Shown here piece after piece: positions 14,464 to 21,012 of a stretch of DNA of 32,000 nucleotides. Source of the DNA: Vulcaniibacterium thermophilum (GTDB taxonomy: Bacteria > Pseudomonadota > Gammaproteobacteria > Xanthomonadales > Xanthomonadaceae); contig NZ_VOHJ01000007.1 of the NCBI RefSeq assembly GCF_007923255.1, positions 30,462-62,461 on the forward strand. Reading direction: 5' to 3'. A program made the translations under genes and the position numbers. A model generated the notes under the pieces. It did no database searches. It saw only the letters and a program-made list of their open reading frames with translations, and was not told where the DNA came from. The stretch's first letter is position 1. Each line of letters opens with the position of its first letter.

Positions 14464-15465
14464 TCAGGCGCGGTCGAACGCGAAGGCAAGCACGTCGGCG
14501 ATGCGGTCGGTGTCCAGCATCGCCATCAGCAGGCGGTCGACGCCGAGCGCGACCCCCGCACAGGCCGGCATGCCCGCTTCCAGCGCGGCCAGCAGACGCT
14601 CGTCCTGCGGCGGCGCAACATGACCGCGCGCCAGACGCGTGGCGCGGTCGCGCTCGAAGCGCGCGCGTTGCTCGGCCGCATCGAGCAGCTCGTGATAACC
14701 GTTGGCGAGTTCCAGCGGACCGAGGTAGAGCTCGAAACGCTCGGCGACCGGCGGATCGCCGTGGCGGATACGCGCCAGCGCGCATTGCGAAGCGGGGTAG
14801 TCGATCACCGCCAGCAGTTGCTCGCGCGGGAACGCCGGCTGGATGCGATGGGTCATCAGCAGGTCGAGCCAGTCGTCGCGGGCCAGTCCGTCGGGATCGA
14901 TGCGGACGTCGCCGAGCGCCGCGCGCAGTTCGGCTTCGCTGGCGGTGAAGGGGTCGAGGCCGAGTGCGTCGCGGTAGAGATCGCGGAACGTGGTCTCGCG
15001 CAGGCGAGCCTCGCGCCCGACCAGCGCCAGCGCGGCCTGCACCAGTTCGGCGGTCTCGCGCGCCAGCCGGCGGTGGTCCCAGCCGACGCGGTACCACTCC
15101 AGCATGGTGAACTCGGGGTTGTGCCGGCCGCCGGCCTCGCCGTCGCGGAACACGCGGCCCAGCTCGTAGCAGTCGCCGATGCCGGCGGCGAGCAGACGCT
15201 TGAGCGCGAACTCCGGCGAGGTGCGCAGCCAGCGCGTGCGCGGCGCGCCGTCGGTGCGACCGGAGAACTCCAGCGAGAACGAGGCGATGTTGGGGTCGGT
15301 GTTGCCGGCCATCGACAGGACCGGCGTCTCCACTTCCAGCACGCCGCGTCGGGCGAAGAAGTCGCGGATCGACGCGTTGAGGCGGGCGCGCAGGCGGAGC
15401 GCTTCGACGGGCGCCGAGGGGCGCCAGTCGGCGGGCGGTGCGTCGCCGGCGCTTGTCCCCCTCAC
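14464..15465 (-). CDS. epmA: Elongation factor P--(R)-beta-lysine ligase (EpmA/PoxA/GenX); start uncertain
   Basis: Collinear with E. coli EpmA from DWRPSAPVEALRLRARLNASIRDFFARRGVLEVETPVLS onward. Class-II aaRS motifs FRDGEAGGRHNPEFTMLEWY and GVALGVDRLLM. There is no stop upstream in this frame. The preferred start is GTG at 15465, preceded by GGAGAGGG, both inside a REP arm. The alternative is ATG at 15585. Confidence 0.85.
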   Translation of the reverse strand: MRGTSAGDAPPADWRPSAPVEALRLRARLNASIRDFFARRGVLEVETPVLSMAGNTDPNIASFSLEFSGRTDGAPRTRWLRTSPEFALKRLLAAGIGDCYELGRVFRDGEAGGRHNPEFTMLEWYRVGWDHRRLARETAELVQAALALVGREARLRETTFRDLYRDALGLDPFTASEAELRAALGDVRIDPDGLARDDWLDLLMTHRIQPAFPREQLLAVIDYPASQCALARIRHGDPPVAERFELYLGPLELANGYHELLDAAEQRARFERDRATRLARGHVAPPQDERLLAALEAGMPACAGVALGVDRLLMAMLDTDRIADVLAFAFDRA

Positions 15466-15645
15466 CCCGGCCCTCTCCCCCGCAAGCGGGGGAGAGGGGG
15501 ACGAAGCGGCGAGGCGAGAAGACGAAACGTCGCTGGCGCTTGCCCCCCTCACCCCAGAGGAGCCTTCAAAGCACTCGCGTTCCATGCGACGCCCGCCGTA
15601 TCCCCCTCTCCCCCGCTTGCGGGGGAGAGGGCCGGGGTGAGGGGG
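15457..15645. repeat. 189-bp REP/MITE-like unit: two 45-bp perfectly inverted arms flanking a 99-bp core
   Basis: Arm A (15457-15501) ccccctcaccccggccctctcccccgcaagcgggggagaggggga is the exact reverse complement of arm B (15601-15645). Each arm contains its own 11-bp-stem palindrome (ccctctccccc gcaagc gggggagaggg). A partial third copy, cccccctcacccc, lies at 15543-15555. Confidence 0.9.
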
Positions 15646-15648
15646 GCG

Positions 15649-15972
15649 CGCCTGCAAGGCGCGCCAGATCGCATCGACCACCGCCTCCGGGTGCTGCAAC
15701 ACCTCGTGATCCCAGAAGCGCAGCACCCGCCATCCAGCCGCTTCAAGCCGCGCGGTACGTCGGCGATCGGCCGCCGCATGGCCAGCCTCCGCATGCTGTC
15801 CACCGTCGAGCTCCACTGCGAGCGCCCTTTCGACGCAAGCGAAATCGAGGATGAAGCCCAACGCGCGGTGCTGCCGCCGGAACTTCGCGCCAAGCTGATG
15901 GTTGCGCAGATGCCGCCACAGCAGTGCCTCGGCGTCGGTCTGTTCCTTGCGCAATCGTCTGGCGTGATCCAT
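15649..15972 (-). CDS. DUF559 (Vsr-like) endonuclease-domain ORF; 3' end undefined because it has no stop before epmA
   Basis: ATG at 15972, 20 nt after the ligA stop, with GAGG/GGGAG upstream. The 108-aa domain is MDHARRLRKEQTDAEALLWRHLRNHQLGAKFRRQHRALGFILDFACVERALAVELDGGQH...WRVLRFWDHEVL. Coordinates cover the recognisable domain only. The frame continues open through the REP unit into epmA. Confidence 0.7.
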
Positions 15973-18086: not shown

Positions 18087-18178
18087 TTAACGCGGGCCGC
18101 GCACCCTCGGGTCGGCCCCAGGTGGCCGCGGCGCGTGCGGCGGGCGAGCCTGAGCGCGGAAGCGACGGAGTCGAGGCC

Positions 18179-19483
18179 ATGACGCAACTGGCGCGGATCG
18201 GCGGCAGCACGCCGCAGTTCCACCGGTGGGACGATCTTCTGCGCGACGCCGCGGGCGATGCCGGCGCGCTGCTGGCCGCGTTGCAGCAGGCGCCGGCCGC
18301 GGACCGCGCGGGGCTGGCGGCACGCACGCTCGATGCCCTTAGCGATGCGCAGTTGTCCGCGCTCGCGGCGCAACCGCGCGGCGCCGAGACCCTGCGCGCC
18401 CTGCGCGACGCGGCGGCGGACGCGCCCGCCGGCGCGCCGGGCGCGGATGCGCGCGTGGCACGTGCGGACGGCGCGCTGCGGCAGGCCGACGAGGCCCGGT
18501 TGGCGAAGGAGAAACAGGAGCTGCTGCTCGATCTGGGCCAGATCGCGCTCGACATCGTCGGCATCTTCGAACCTACGCCGTTCGCCGATCTGACCAACGC
18601 CGGCATCTCGATCTGGCGCGGCAACTGGCTCGATGCCGGGCTGTCGGCCGTGGGCGTGATCCCCTACCTCGGCGATGCGGCCAAGCTGGGCAAGCTCGGC
18701 AAGTTCGGCAAGGTGATCGAACGGGCGGTCGAACTGGCGAAACTCGACCCCGGCTTCGCCGACCAGCTTCGGCCCGCGCTGAGGAAGATCAAGGACGCCA
18801 TCGACGCCGCGCCGGTCGATTCCCTGCCCGGCCCGGCGCGCGATGCCGTGCGGTCGATGAAGGGCAAGCTGGACGAGTTCTTCTCCGGCGCGGCCAAGAC
18901 CCCCACGACCGGTCCGCGAATGGCGGATGGCACGCCGCTTCCGGCCAACGTGAAGTTGGATCTGCGTGGAACGAGCGTGATCGATCCCGCTGCCGCTAGC
19001 CGCTTGACGGACGCCTCACGTTTGCCGCAGGTGAGCAATGGTAAGGTCGAGGTGACCCACGGACCCGAAGCAGGGACCACGAAGACCGTGATTCTTTCGA
19101 AGGAGGCGGGGCAGACGGTGACCAAGGACGGTTACACCATCACCAAGGACGCGAACGGCTTCCCGATCTTCAACAGCAGGTTCGACACCTTCGTTCCCGA
19201 TCATCTGCTGGGCACGGGCAAGGAGGCCGATCATTTCCGCTACGCCAACGAGCGTCTAGGCACTCTACTGCGTCAGAACCCCGAGCTCGCCAAAGACATG
19301 GGGCTCGACGCGGCGCAAGTGAAGCATCTGACCAAGCAGCCGCCCTCCTCGGCGCCGCCACCGGGTTTGACGTGGCACCATCACCAGGACGTCGGCCGCA
19401 TGCAGCTGGTCGTGCGTGCCGAGCACCAGGCCCATGTGCCGCACACCGGTGGCATGTCGATCTGGGGCGGTGGCTACAAGTAG
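18179..19483 (+). CDS. Polymorphic-toxin-like protein: unassigned N-terminus + PT-TG-like segment + C-terminal WHH-type HNH/EndoVII nuclease
   Basis: 434 aa from ATG 18179, with GGAG upstream; the track start at 18122 is a GTG extension. The C-terminus reads GFPIFNSRFDTF...DHFRYANERLG...GLTWHHHQDVGRMQLVVRAEHQAHVPHTGGMSIWGG, which matches the WHH-clade pattern. The mid region reads DIVGIFEPTPFADLTNAGISIWRGNWLDAGLSAVGVIPYLGDAAKLGKLGK and is pre-toxin-like. No signal peptide. Followed by immunity-type genes. Confidence 0.8.
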   Translation: MTQLARIGGSTPQFHRWDDLLRDAAGDAGALLAALQQAPAADRAGLAARTLDALSDAQLSALAAQPRGAETLRALRDAAADAPAGAPGADARVARADGALRQADEARLAKEKQELLLDLGQIALDIVGIFEPTPFADLTNAGISIWRGNWLDAGLSAVGVIPYLGDAAKLGKLGKFGKVIERAVELAKLDPGFADQLRPALRKIKDAIDAAPVDSLPGPARDAVRSMKGKLDEFFSGAAKTPTTGPRMADGTPLPANVKLDLRGTSVIDPAAASRLTDASRLPQVSNGKVEVTHGPEAGTTKTVILSKEAGQTVTKDGYTITKDANGFPIFNSRFDTFVPDHLLGTGKEADHFRYANERLGTLLRQNPELAKDMGLDAAQVKHLTKQPPSSAPPPGLTWHHHQDVGRMQLVVRAEHQAHVPHTGGMSIWGGGYK

Positions 19484-19516
19484 ACTCAGGCGCCCGATTC
19501 CTTTCGACCCTGGGCC

Positions 19517-19972
19517 ATGACCATCGACTGGGAAGAGTATCTCGACGTTCCGCCGGCGAGCGATGCCGACATCGCTCGCGTGGAGCACACGTTGGGCGTC
19601 ACGCTGCCGGATGATTTCCGCGATGCCTTGCGCCGGCATCAGGGCCGCCTGCCGACACGGAACGTCCTGCATGCCGACGCAATGAATCCCGTGACGTTCG
19701 GACCGCTGCTGCACGTCAGCAGCACGGCAGATGGCTATGCGGCCGACTACGAGATGACGCGGGTGGCGGCCGTGTGGCGGCGGTTGTATCCGAAGGTCGT
19801 GCCGATCGCCGACAACGGTGGCGGCAGTTGCTTCGCCTACGACTACGCCGCTGGAGAAAGGCAGCCGCCGATCGTTTTTCTCAACCACGAAGCCGAGCCC
19901 ACCGACCCGGCAGGAAAAATCCGCGTGGCGGATTCGTTTGCCGAGCTTCTTGCGAAGCTTCGCGAACAGTGA
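19517..19972 (+). CDS. SMI1/KNR4 (SUKH-1) family protein, putative cognate immunity protein
   Basis: 151 aa. SUKH-1 hallmarks: IARVEHTLGVTLPDDFRDALRRHQG near the N-terminus and VVPIADNGGGSCFAYDY near the C-terminus. Starts 34 nt after the toxin stop. Confidence 0.85.
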   Translation: MTIDWEEYLDVPPASDADIARVEHTLGVTLPDDFRDALRRHQGRLPTRNVLHADAMNPVTFGPLLHVSSTADGYAADYEMTRVAAVWRRLYPKVVPIADNGGGSCFAYDYAAGERQPPIVFLNHEAEPTDPAGKIRVADSFAELLAKLREQ

Positions 19973-19999
19973 CCCACCGGTCCCCGGAAGCGACGGAGC

Positions 20000-20356
20000 A
20001 TGTCCGAGCAGAGGATTTCACCCGAGTTGAAGCCGAGCGATGTGCGGTTGGAGAGAATCGGCGCGATCCTCGGAACGCTCCTGCCTGCAGAGGCGGACTG
20101 GATCACGGCCGAAGCGACCGTCGGCGACGACTGGTCGGAAGTCCGCTTTACCTACGGCGGCGCCGATGGAACGCCGCGGTATTTCTCGATGGCCGAGCAT
20201 CCGGCGACCGCGGCCGGCGATATCGGCGATGTCCTCATCGACATGCGCGAGCGGTTGCGGCAGGACGGCGGTGAGGTGTGGAACGGTTGCCGCTTCACCT
20301 TGCAGCGCGATGGGCGCTTCTCGCTCGACTTCGCCTTCGACCAGGCGACTTCGTAG
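20000..20356 (+). CDS. YezG/DUF600-like immunity-type protein
   Basis: 118 aa with GGAG 4 nt before the ATG. The pattern LPAEADWITAEATVGDDWSEVRFTY ... GGEVWNGCRFTLQRDGRFSLDFAFD mirrors the DUF600/YezG layout as I recall it (P.eW...a.v.dd.sev.F.y ... eW....l.l...G.f..df.y). Needs HMM confirmation. Confidence 0.65.
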   Translation: MSEQRISPELKPSDVRLERIGAILGTLLPAEADWITAEATVGDDWSEVRFTYGGADGTPRYFSMAEHPATAAGDIGDVLIDMRERLRQDGGEVWNGCRFTLQRDGRFSLDFAFDQATS

Positions 20357-20378
20357 CGGGCGCATGCAGGAGGCCCGC

Positions 20379-20810
20379 GTGAAGTCGTCCGATCTCATCC
20401 TCGCCTCGATCGCGGAGCGCCTGGCGACCGATCCGAAGGTCAACGCCGCGCCGTGGGATCAGTACGCACTCGTCGCCTGGTACGGCGACGGCGTGAGCAA
20501 GCTCAACGGGTTCCGCTACCGCGGCGATGCGCCAGGCGAGCCTGCCACTCCGGCCTCGTTCGAGATCGAGGACCTGCTGGACGATCTGCGTGCGGCAACG
20601 CAGGTGGAAGGCAAGGGGCCGTGGCGCGCGTGCGTGGTTCGGCTGGATCGCGCCGATGGGAAGGTGACGGTGGATTTCGAGTACGAGCGGCCCGAGGTGT
20701 GGGAGGTCACGCCGGCGACGGTGCGCCGGGTCGCGGAGCGCGCGAGATCCGCGGACGCCCTCACCCCAACCCCTCGTCCGCAGCACGGGAGAGGGGCCAC
20801 GTTGCCGTAG
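20379..20810 (+). CDS. Second YezG/DUF600-like immunity-type protein (diverged); C-terminus encoded by a REP copy
   Basis: In the frame of track ORF 20040..20810. The preferred start is GTG 20379, 6 nt after AGGAGG; ATG 20364 is the alternative. Layout PWDQYALVAWYGDGVSKLNGFRY ... GPWRACVVRLDRADGKVTVDFEYE parallels the previous ORF. The last roughly 17 codons (ALTPTPRPQHGRGATLP) lie in REP sequence. Confidence 0.55.
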   Translation: MKSSDLILASIAERLATDPKVNAAPWDQYALVAWYGDGVSKLNGFRYRGDAPGEPATPASFEIEDLLDDLRAATQVEGKGPWRACVVRLDRADGKVTVDFEYERPEVWEVTPATVRRVAERARSADALTPTPRPQHGRGATLP

Positions 20811-21012
20811 GTTGGGCTGAGCGCAGCGAAGCCCAACATCGCGCGGCCTCGTACATCAAACATCGCTTCAGGTGCAGACGAGCCATGCGCGCCTGCGGCG
20901 CGCGCCCTCACCCCGACCCCTCTCCGGCCCGCCGCAGCGCGGCGGGCGTTCGTCGGCGCGCGAGCCTGCGGCTTGCAAGCGCGCCTCCCCACCCCGCACG
21001 CGGGAGAGGGGC
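20757..21012. repeat. REP cluster at the island/zipA junction (two repeat families)
   Basis: CCCTCACCCC-type copies at 20757-20797 and 20904-20925, with a GGGAGAGGGG partner at 21002-21011; this is the same family as 15457-15645. An 8-bp-stem hairpin GTTGGGCT-N11-AGCCCAAC lies at 20811-20837. A perfect 9-bp hairpin GCCCGCCGC-AGC-GCGGCGGGC lies at 20927-20947. Confidence 0.75.

Follow-up and report, generated by a model that had tools for sequence, protein, structure and literature searches.

The 32,000-nucleotide stretch of the Vulcaniibacterium thermophilum genome analyzed here (contig NZ_VOHJ01000007.1, positions 30,462 to 62,461; hereafter the window) carries, between ligA and zipA-smc, a toxin island headed by a complete gene for a toxin of 434 aa (18179..19483, + strand), which consists of a leader, a conserved pre-toxin module, a linker and a WHH/colicin-type DNase. 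The open reading frame (ORF) starts with ATG, 8 nt downstream of the ribosome-binding site GGAG (18167-18170), and the product is 100% identical to a V. thermophilum protein annotated at NCBI as 'HNH endonuclease'. Its only Pfam matches lie at the C-terminus, in the DNase toxin domain (19145..19471, +): Colicin-DNase PF12639 over residues 323-424 (E 6.8e-17; 62.5 bits, gathering cut-off 25) and WHH PF14414 over residues 391-431 (E 3.6e-14; 52.6 bits, gathering cut-off 25.1). In this the locus resembles colicin E-type or WHH HNH-EndoVII DNases with SUKH immunity, since its C-terminal domain scores above the Pfam gathering cut-offs and so does the gene downstream. Unlike colicins, however, the toxin has no colicin receptor-binding or translocation domain at its front.

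Ahead of the DNase, no known domain was recognized. Residues 1-259 have no Pfam match at E<=10, PT-TG included, and the whole protein has no NCBIfam match. By Pfam, the toxin has no PAAR, VgrG, Hcp, Rhs or known marker domain of any type VI secretion system (T6SS), and no TPS domain, FHA repeats or LXG domain; Kyte-Doolittle averaging over 19-residue windows found no hydrophobic N-terminal region of the kind that a signal peptide or a lipobox would have. An earlier reading of the same stretch, made from its letters and ORFs (the original prediction), had described this N-terminus as unassigned, free of signal peptide, PAAR, LXG and TPS/FHA features, and unlinked to any secretion system within the 32 kb, and all of this holds. 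The gene list of the window contains no secretion-system gene, neither from any type III secretion system (T3SS) nor vgrG, PAAR or adaptor genes of a T6SS; all genes outside the toxin island serve housekeeping, metabolism or regulation (among them those for thiolase, carboxyltransferase, bactofilin, EpmA, dehydrogenases, CcmA/B and a two-component pair). The N-terminus does carry an unrecognized conserved polymorphic-toxin domain, as had been suspected, and it is pre-toxin-like in that it lies immediately upstream of interchangeable toxins. The conserved unit is not the first 110 residues, which the prediction had described as unassigned; it comprises residues ~113-240, and residues 1-112 are a leader confined to the Lysobacteraceae. 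The segment singled out as residues ~113-176 is real and recurs far beyond chance (in 3812 clusters, see below); its exact position is 115-178, two residues later than estimated.

The conserved, unannotated pre-toxin module (residues ~113-240; 18515..18898, +) was delimited from two alignments (A1 and A2), a profile search and AlphaFold2 (AF2) modelling. Its core, at residues 115-178 (LLLDLGQ...KFGK; 18521..18712, +, read from the ORF translation), has the consensus LDxxQxxLDxxGIxEPTPFADxxNxxISxxRGxWxxAGLSxxGxxPYxGDxAKLGK. In order, the module comprises an amphipathic helix (LxLDxxQxxLDxxGI), an invariant EPTPFxD turn, a Gly-rich stretch (ISxxRGxWxxAGLSxxGxxPYxGDxAKLGKLGK) and a three-helix bundle, and its invariant residues are D118, Q121, L124, G128, P132, T133, P134, D137, I143, S144, R147, S156, P162, G165, D166 and K169. 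The AF2 model of the module has a predicted local distance difference test score (pLDDT) of 77.8, with residues 164-238 forming a confident bundle. Foldseek gave no significant match in the PDB for either AF2 model, full-length or module, and the module profile found nothing real among the PDB sequences. The best 19-residue hydrophobicity windows of the whole toxin (1.27 and 0.99) both fall within the module; a transmembrane hairpin formed by these two stretches was considered and is weakened by values that do not exceed 1.27 and by the invariant acidic or polar residues. Behind the module come the flexible linker and the start of the variable region (18899..19144, +), with pLDDT below 50 over residues 239-310.

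The leader (residues 1-112; 18179..18514, +), defined by the AF2 model and the alignment, has no Pfam match of its own. In the full-length model its residues 1-11 are disordered and residues 13-85 form a confident helical bundle (pLDDT 79-95 over residues 20-110), and a long helix at residues 89-130 runs from the leader into the module. It could be aligned solely with relatives from Luteimonas and from metagenome-assembled genomes (MAGs), and is poorly conserved outside this Lysobacteraceae-specific set, the consensus of which is MVDPxRV...PPP...RPQLA..LL.GLDDAALA.LAA.EDGRATLQALD.ALAEAPP. The first alignment of this leader was too variable for leader searches. A protein search gave no leader match at E<=1e-3, with Ala-rich low-complexity candidates probably crowding the word filter, and a metagenome scan with the leader yielded no further loci. 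An internal repeat relating the leader to the module was not significant (E 0.24).

The module belongs to a large family. An exhaustive profile search of 1.84 billion representative sequences returned 3812 clusters at E<=1e-3; tightening the threshold to 1e-10 left 1249 of them and 1e-30 left 323. The module was found in five phyla (Proteobacteria, Planctomycetota, Acidobacteriota, Nitrospirota and Verrucomicrobiota). The hosts of 80 loci drawn from GTDB, one species per locus, include Luteimonas, many Sphingomonadales, Caulobacter, Paracoccus, Ottowia, Planctomycetota, Pyrinomonadaceae, Verrucomicrobiota and Nitrospirota. Throughout the family, the module is followed directly by interchangeable domains with nuclease, RNase or NADase function, and at least 15 different toxin families occur downstream of it. 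For example, a search with residues 1-259 gave 99 proteins, most of them matching about half of the query, whose C-terminal toxins comprise Endonuclea_NS_2, CdiA-CT tRNase, RNase A domains, Ntox46, Tox-REase-7 and EndoU. Among 231 members, 0-190 residues precede the module and 100-200 follow it, and the small toxins of the family are typically 300-450 aa long. In 115 diverse representatives, all recognizable payloads hit cytoplasmic targets, being nucleases, RNases, NADase-type enzymes or deamidases: Endonuclea_NS_2 accounts for 21 and Colicin-DNase/WHH for 10, next to Ntox46, DUF6883, HNH, EndoU, CdiA_C, RNase A, colicin D, REase-5 and AHH, and single cases are a glutamine deamidase and an ADP-ribosyl cyclase. 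PT-TG, PAAR, VgrG, LXG and TPS domains are absent from all 115, which were scanned at full length with Pfam at E<=1e-3. As a separate observation, Luteimonas has, just upstream of the family toxin, an RNase A-type toxin of ~250 aa with a CdiI_2 immunity gene (L005, 8796-9560, and equivalents in L008-L012), which has no EPTPFAD core and whose match to the module is confined to the helical second half (profile positions ~62-133).

The genes behind the toxin, read against this family, show a polymorphic-toxin locus, with a conserved N-terminus joined to variable C-terminal toxins and with both cognate and orphan immunity genes downstream. The next gene (19517..19972, +) encodes the cognate immunity protein, of the SUKH-1/SMI1_KNR4 type (Pfam E 5.7e-21), and is 61% identical to the immunity gene after the orthologous WHH toxin in L006. 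It is followed by an orphan immunity gene of the YezG-like type (20000..20356, +; Pfam E 1.2e-5), 53-54% identical to immunity genes downstream of Endonuclea_NS_2 family toxins in Luteimonas, and by a second orphan immunity-like gene (20364..20810, +), a called gene with no Pfam match. The 148-aa product of the latter is homologous to genes directly after family toxins in 16 other loci, among them L070, where the gene after the toxin of the T3SS operon encodes a protein 34% identical to it (E 2.7e-17). Immunity to two toxins that the cell does not make argues for incoming attack by relatives. Exchange of the payload can be seen in the relative P0002, which is 92.5% identical to the V. thermophilum toxin over residues 43-242 and then continues with Endonuclea_NS_2 in place of WHH, so that the recombination junction lies immediately after '...KLDEFF(S/A)G'; over its whole length, the Endonuclea_NS_2 toxin of P0002 shares 62% identity with P0010, a toxin of Luteimonas. 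The G+C content is 0.78 in the leader and 0.63-0.65 in the linker, the DNase and the first two immunity genes, against a window average of 0.715, and this drop across 18179-20356 would fit a resident 5' end to which an imported toxin-immunity cassette has been joined. A related MAG encodes a chimeric protein of 189 aa (P0003), in which residues ~108-243 of the toxin (the module) continue in frame with the last 54 residues of the YezG-like immunity protein. Compared with 18500-20356 of the window, it is a deletion allele from which the DNase domain, the whole SUKH gene and one half of the second immunity gene are missing.

The core of the module also occurs in much larger proteins. In L131 and L135, the latter a YD-repeat protein of 3481 aa, a core of ~55 aa stands a few residues after the DPxG motif at the end of the Rhs core, the ends reading ...NLYGFVGNSPINFVDPYGE and ...NPYIYTYQNPIRYIDPNGK, and a core of the same size is present in the large proteins L132 and L136. 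The Rhs-linked and large-protein cores have no match to PT-TG or to other Pfam families. In P0217, an SLT-like region and an eCIS_core/DUF4157 domain lie directly upstream of the module. Some other family members (L090 1-3121; P0122 and P0164, ~1150-1180 aa) are also large proteins, with ~870 unannotated residues ahead of it.

Clustering of the flanking ORFs of 85 loci showed that, beyond immunity genes and lineage-specific synteny, the sole neighbours shared across taxa are genes of non-flagellar T3SS. Metagenome contigs added 45 loci, mostly short. In 136 related loci, only 88 of which are 12 kb or longer, the toxin is T3SS-adjacent in 20 and T6SS-adjacent in nine, and both linkages recur in the metagenome loci, which form an independent sample. 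The T3SS-adjacent loci, from alpha/beta-proteobacteria and metagenomes, contain complete non-flagellar clusters of the Rhc-like type in ~10 independent arrangements (SctC secretin, SctV, SLT transglycosylase, SctU, FliO-like, SctQ, SctR/S/T, SctD of the YscD/Y4YQ_C type, SctJ, SctL and SctN ATPase); even with related loci collapsed to 10 such arrangements in 60, the binomial probability is ~1e-8 at a generous background of 1.4%. For example, the toxin and its immunity gene end the sctN operon in Sphingomonas sp. CCH21-G11 (L070) and sit between sctT and sctU in Ottowia flava (L035), and in L001 and L086 different toxin-immunity pairs occupy the identical position beside sctT. At least 11 loci have a DUF1521 gene as the immediate upstream neighbour of the toxin, and LysM-lysozyme or VgrG3-like peptidoglycan hydrolases are encoded near it in 16 of the 136. 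Complete Rhc-like clusters with module toxins extend over L070 1-11400, L035 2800-19400, L044 1-11000 and L086 1-21281, with Sphingomonadales, Caulobacter and Ottowia as hosts. Their cargo includes immunity genes, DUF1521, a LuxR-type regulator, LysM-lysozyme/VgrG3-like hydrolases that have small ORFs downstream, phospholipase-like proteins and MACPF proteins, a gene content that looks like an antibacterial arsenal.

The T6SS-adjacent loci include those of a Planctomyces (L028), a member of the Nitrospiraceae (L052), a gammaproteobacterial MAG (L075), a member of the Manganitrophaceae (L081) and L088, with genes for ClpV, VgrG, PAAR, DUF2169, a PAAR-like GHH2 toxin and TssM. L015 was rejected from this set, as its ClpV-like match is only 32% identical and probably ClpB. 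The type of leader follows the machine. T3SS-linked members have a leader of 90-190 aa (M-V-x-P...A..LL..N..G.D...L..DL..L...DP..A......L.P.ErGELaR), and T6SS-linked members have none, or ~45 aa starting with 'MAGxRIPGP'. The motif MAGxRIPGPxG is common to the toxin N-termini of L013, L052, L081 and L116, which are T6SS-linked or other non-proteobacterial members; it resembles no motif known to us and could be a loading signal of its own. Homology between the Lysobacteraceae leader and the 'type-A' leader of alpha/beta-proteobacterial members was rejected (hhalign probability 1.6%, HMM scores in the range of shuffled sequences). A SctV profile search aimed at Lysobacteraceae was saturated by Ottowia-like sequences; the matches listed were Ottowia, Caulobacter and Erythrobacter-like.

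The original prediction had likened the segment to PT-TG (PF14449), a helical domain found just upstream of nuclease modules (Zhang, Iyer & Aravind 2011; PMC3113570). PT-TG occurs with T6SS (VgrG), type VII secretion system (LXG/WXG) and contact-dependent inhibition proteins, and in diderms in 'PT-TG-toxin' proteins of unassigned route, and its conserved loop models poorly (Pandoomain survey, PMC13483458). The module resembles PT-TG in being alpha-helical in the AF2 model and directly N-terminal to interchangeable toxins, in having a conserved Gly-containing loop that is poorly modelled, and in its association with several delivery contexts (T3SS, T6SS and Rhs) as well as with short pre-toxin + toxin proteins in diderms. 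It could be argued that the segment is just a divergent PT-TG, and that there is nothing new here beyond a gap in the sensitivity of Pfam, since position and partner types are the same (PMC13483458) and the most conserved stretch is a low-confidence loop in both. We give this possibility limited credence. The PF14449 hidden Markov model (HMM) was unmatched in all of the ~160 family members tested and in the Rhs-linked cores (E<=10 for residues 1-259, the 74-aa segment, 41 module sequences and the Rhs-linked cores; E<=1e-3 for the 115 representatives), so the claimed likeness was not reproduced by the Pfam model in any of them. Where PT-TG has its TG, the module has the invariant pair R147-G148, within a different signature (EPTPFxD...RG...PYxGD...AKLGK); it is also ~130 aa long, with an added three-helix bundle, and it is so far known from diderm phyla. 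Membership of PT-TG is not supported, since neither the defining HMM nor the TG motif fits. The module appears to be a diderm functional counterpart of PT-TG, alike in role and not in sequence. Turning to delivery, the toxin could be a substrate of a non-flagellar T3SS used against bacteria, with the module serving as a chaperone-binding or docking element. Besides the 20 loci that abut complete Rhc-like clusters, some inside the operon, this would fit the disordered residues 1-11, which are like T3 signals, and the gene directly upstream in many loci, since DUF1521 is the autocleaving domain of the T3-secreted NopE1 and NopE2 (PMC6506597). In having complete SctC/D/J/L/N/Q/R/S/T/U/V clusters and DUF1521 genes around or beside them, the relatives recall the rhizobial Rhc T3SS with NopE1/NopE2. 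The literature searched contains no T3SS-delivered antibacterial toxin, and its sole bacteria-killing T3SS-like system is the Myxococcus T3SS*, documented in killing bacteria, with effectors unidentified (PMC10433427). Unlike both of these systems, the Vulcaniibacterium copy has no linked T3SS gene, none lies near the other Lysobacteraceae members, and their leader is unrelated to the T3SS-linked one. Because the same module is also found in T6SS-linked toxins with a short leader or none, and after Rhs cores, it cannot by itself be a T3SS address, and we consider this explanation unlikely.

A small N-terminal marker joined to a polymorphic toxin and followed by an immunity gene, as with MIX, FIX, RIX and PIX, is typical of orphan T6SS effectors. 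The Vulcaniibacterium toxin has just this architecture, and like these effectors the family combines a conserved N-terminal domain on small proteins with C-terminal toxins and adjacent immunity genes, often far from the machine; the toxin could accordingly be T6SS cargo encoded away from its cluster, with the module as a handle for VgrG, PAAR or an adaptor. The nine loci beside VgrG, PAAR, DUF2169, ClpV or TssM would agree with this, as would the core in Rhs proteins, which are frequent T6SS cargo. However, there is no sequence match to MIX, FIX, RIX or PIX, and the module is not restricted to T6SS, as family members linked to a T3SS are twice as numerous and Rhs proteins carry it too. The T6SS-linked members all have short or 'MAGxRIPGP' leaders, against 112 aa here, and neither the window nor the Luteimonas loci have a vgrG, PAAR or adaptor gene, so that this alternative is unlikely as well. 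Effectors of the bacteria-killing Xanthomonadales type IV secretion system (X-T4SS) end in an XVIPCD of ~120 aa. In the present toxin, the DNase domain spans residues 323-431/434, which leaves no room for a C-terminal XVIPCD, and the module family is widespread in phyla without X-T4SS. Even with Vulcaniibacterium and Luteimonas reported to have XVIPCD proteins or an X-T4SS (PMC11253643; PMC6536674), we regard the toxin as a substrate of that system as the most improbable of the alternatives. It is also very unlikely that the toxin is not exported at all, being instead an intracellular toxin-antitoxin-like or decaying module, or a cassette needing recombination with a full-length gene. The lack of a nearby secretion system and of a signal peptide, and the deletion allele in the related MAG, would suit such an idea, and the last version of it had been put forward in the original prediction. 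Nevertheless, being complete and as long as is usual in the family, the ORF is not an orphan cassette: it has its own start and ribosome-binding site, a leader conserved among Lysobacteraceae and a cognate immunity gene, and the orphans are the extra immunity genes. These imply incoming attack, and relatives of the toxin lie inside secretion operons.

The explanation we prefer, with a probability of roughly 0.55, is that the locus encodes a complete small polymorphic DNase toxin with a portable pre-toxin module that is not the address of one system. It is built from observations on the arrangement of the domains, the size of the family, the swapping of payloads, the immunity genes and the genomic linkages in relatives. 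A module that occurs in three or more delivery contexts cannot be what directs a toxin to one particular secretion system, and the variable leader is a better candidate for this role; the single trafficking domain or route envisaged in the original prediction does not agree with module relatives beside T3SS, beside T6SS and inside Rhs proteins. In the proposed mechanism, the lineage-specific leader (residues 1-112), ahead of the module, would most likely hold the system-specific part. The module (residues ~113-240) would be a portable element shared by T3SS-linked and T6SS-linked small toxins and by Rhs C-terminal toxins, and the flexible linker the site at which recombination exchanges toxin domains. 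The WHH/colicin-type DNase, presumably directed at other bacteria, would be neutralized by the SUKH protein of the next gene. The module would act after export, either by helping the nuclease through the envelope or the inner membrane of the recipient or by binding to a conserved factor there. Such a post-export role is suggested because all recognizable payloads act in the cytoplasm and because the core starts the released toxin fragment of Rhs proteins. Similarly, a conserved region just before a variable, cytoplasm-acting toxin is found in the entry domains of CdiA-CT, the N-terminal membrane segments of Tse6/prePAAR and the N-terminal part of Rhs-CT, and in Rhs proteins the core likewise comes directly after the autoproteolysis site. 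In contrast to those entry regions, the hydrophobicity of the module is below that of typical transmembrane segments, and an entry function can here only be inferred. The Vulcaniibacterium locus would be a complete orphan effector island served by a delivery machine encoded elsewhere; its leader, unrelated to the T3SS- and T6SS-linked leaders, assigns this copy to neither route.

Several points weigh against this explanation. The most conserved stretch of the module (residues 149-164) is a low-confidence loop in the AF2 model, with pLDDT <50, and the hydrophobic stretches are moderate (1.27 and 0.99), with invariant acidic residues. The Lysobacteraceae leader has no detectable kinship to T3SS-linked or T6SS-linked leaders, and no secretion gene was found within 10 kb in the Lysobacteraceae loci, this window included. 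Adjacency to secretion genes in the relatives could mean shared islands and not shared function, and the Rhs identity of L131 and L135 is a provisional one, read from their YD and DPxG motifs. A bolder scheme, which we offer only tentatively, is that the long-leader members in alpha/beta-proteobacteria, encoded together with DUF1521 proteins and LysM hydrolases of peptidoglycan in or next to complete T3SS clusters, are substrates of Rhc-like injectisomes that fire nuclease toxins into neighbours, with the EPTPFAD module as a universal device for entry into the cytoplasm (T3SS, T6SS and Rhs) and the Vulcaniibacterium gene as an orphan member.

Two further features of the window were recorded. 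GC-rich palindromes resembling repetitive extragenic palindromic (REP) elements (CCCTCACCCC...CCCTCTCCCCCGCAAGCGGGGGAGAGGG) are present upstream of ligA (15457-15645), where they include a perfect 45-nt inverted repeat, and recur in diverged form at the 3' border of the toxin island, ahead of zipA (20740-20775, 20887-20922 and 20984-21011). A minus-strand ORF at ~15598-15972 (MDHARRLRKEQTDAEALLWRHLRNHQLGAKFRRQH...RVLRFWDHEV), which is absent from the gene list derived from public annotation, runs into the REP-like elements; its putative product looks like a DUF559 or Vsr-like endonuclease-domain protein.

The toxin-immunity locus is in itself ordinary for its kind, and of all the leads only the T3SS association of its relatives could be new as a category. 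We know of no T3SS that delivers toxin-immunity pairs between bacteria. If the tentative scheme were true, a T3SS would be a genuine weapon between bacteria, complete with toxin-immunity pairs; the family members found repeatedly within complete non-flagellar T3SS operons, together with immunity genes and peptidoglycan hydrolases, make the use of some injectisomes as interbacterial weapons a testable lead. More generally, the module defines a large unannotated domain family, whose thousands of clusters span five or more diderm phyla and which flags small antibacterial toxins which profile libraries miss except for their payloads. Its sharing across T3SS-, T6SS- and Rhs-linked toxins points to a common post-export step, by which delivered nucleases would reach the recipient cytoplasm, and it provides a compact element of 55-130 aa with which nuclease entry can be tested.

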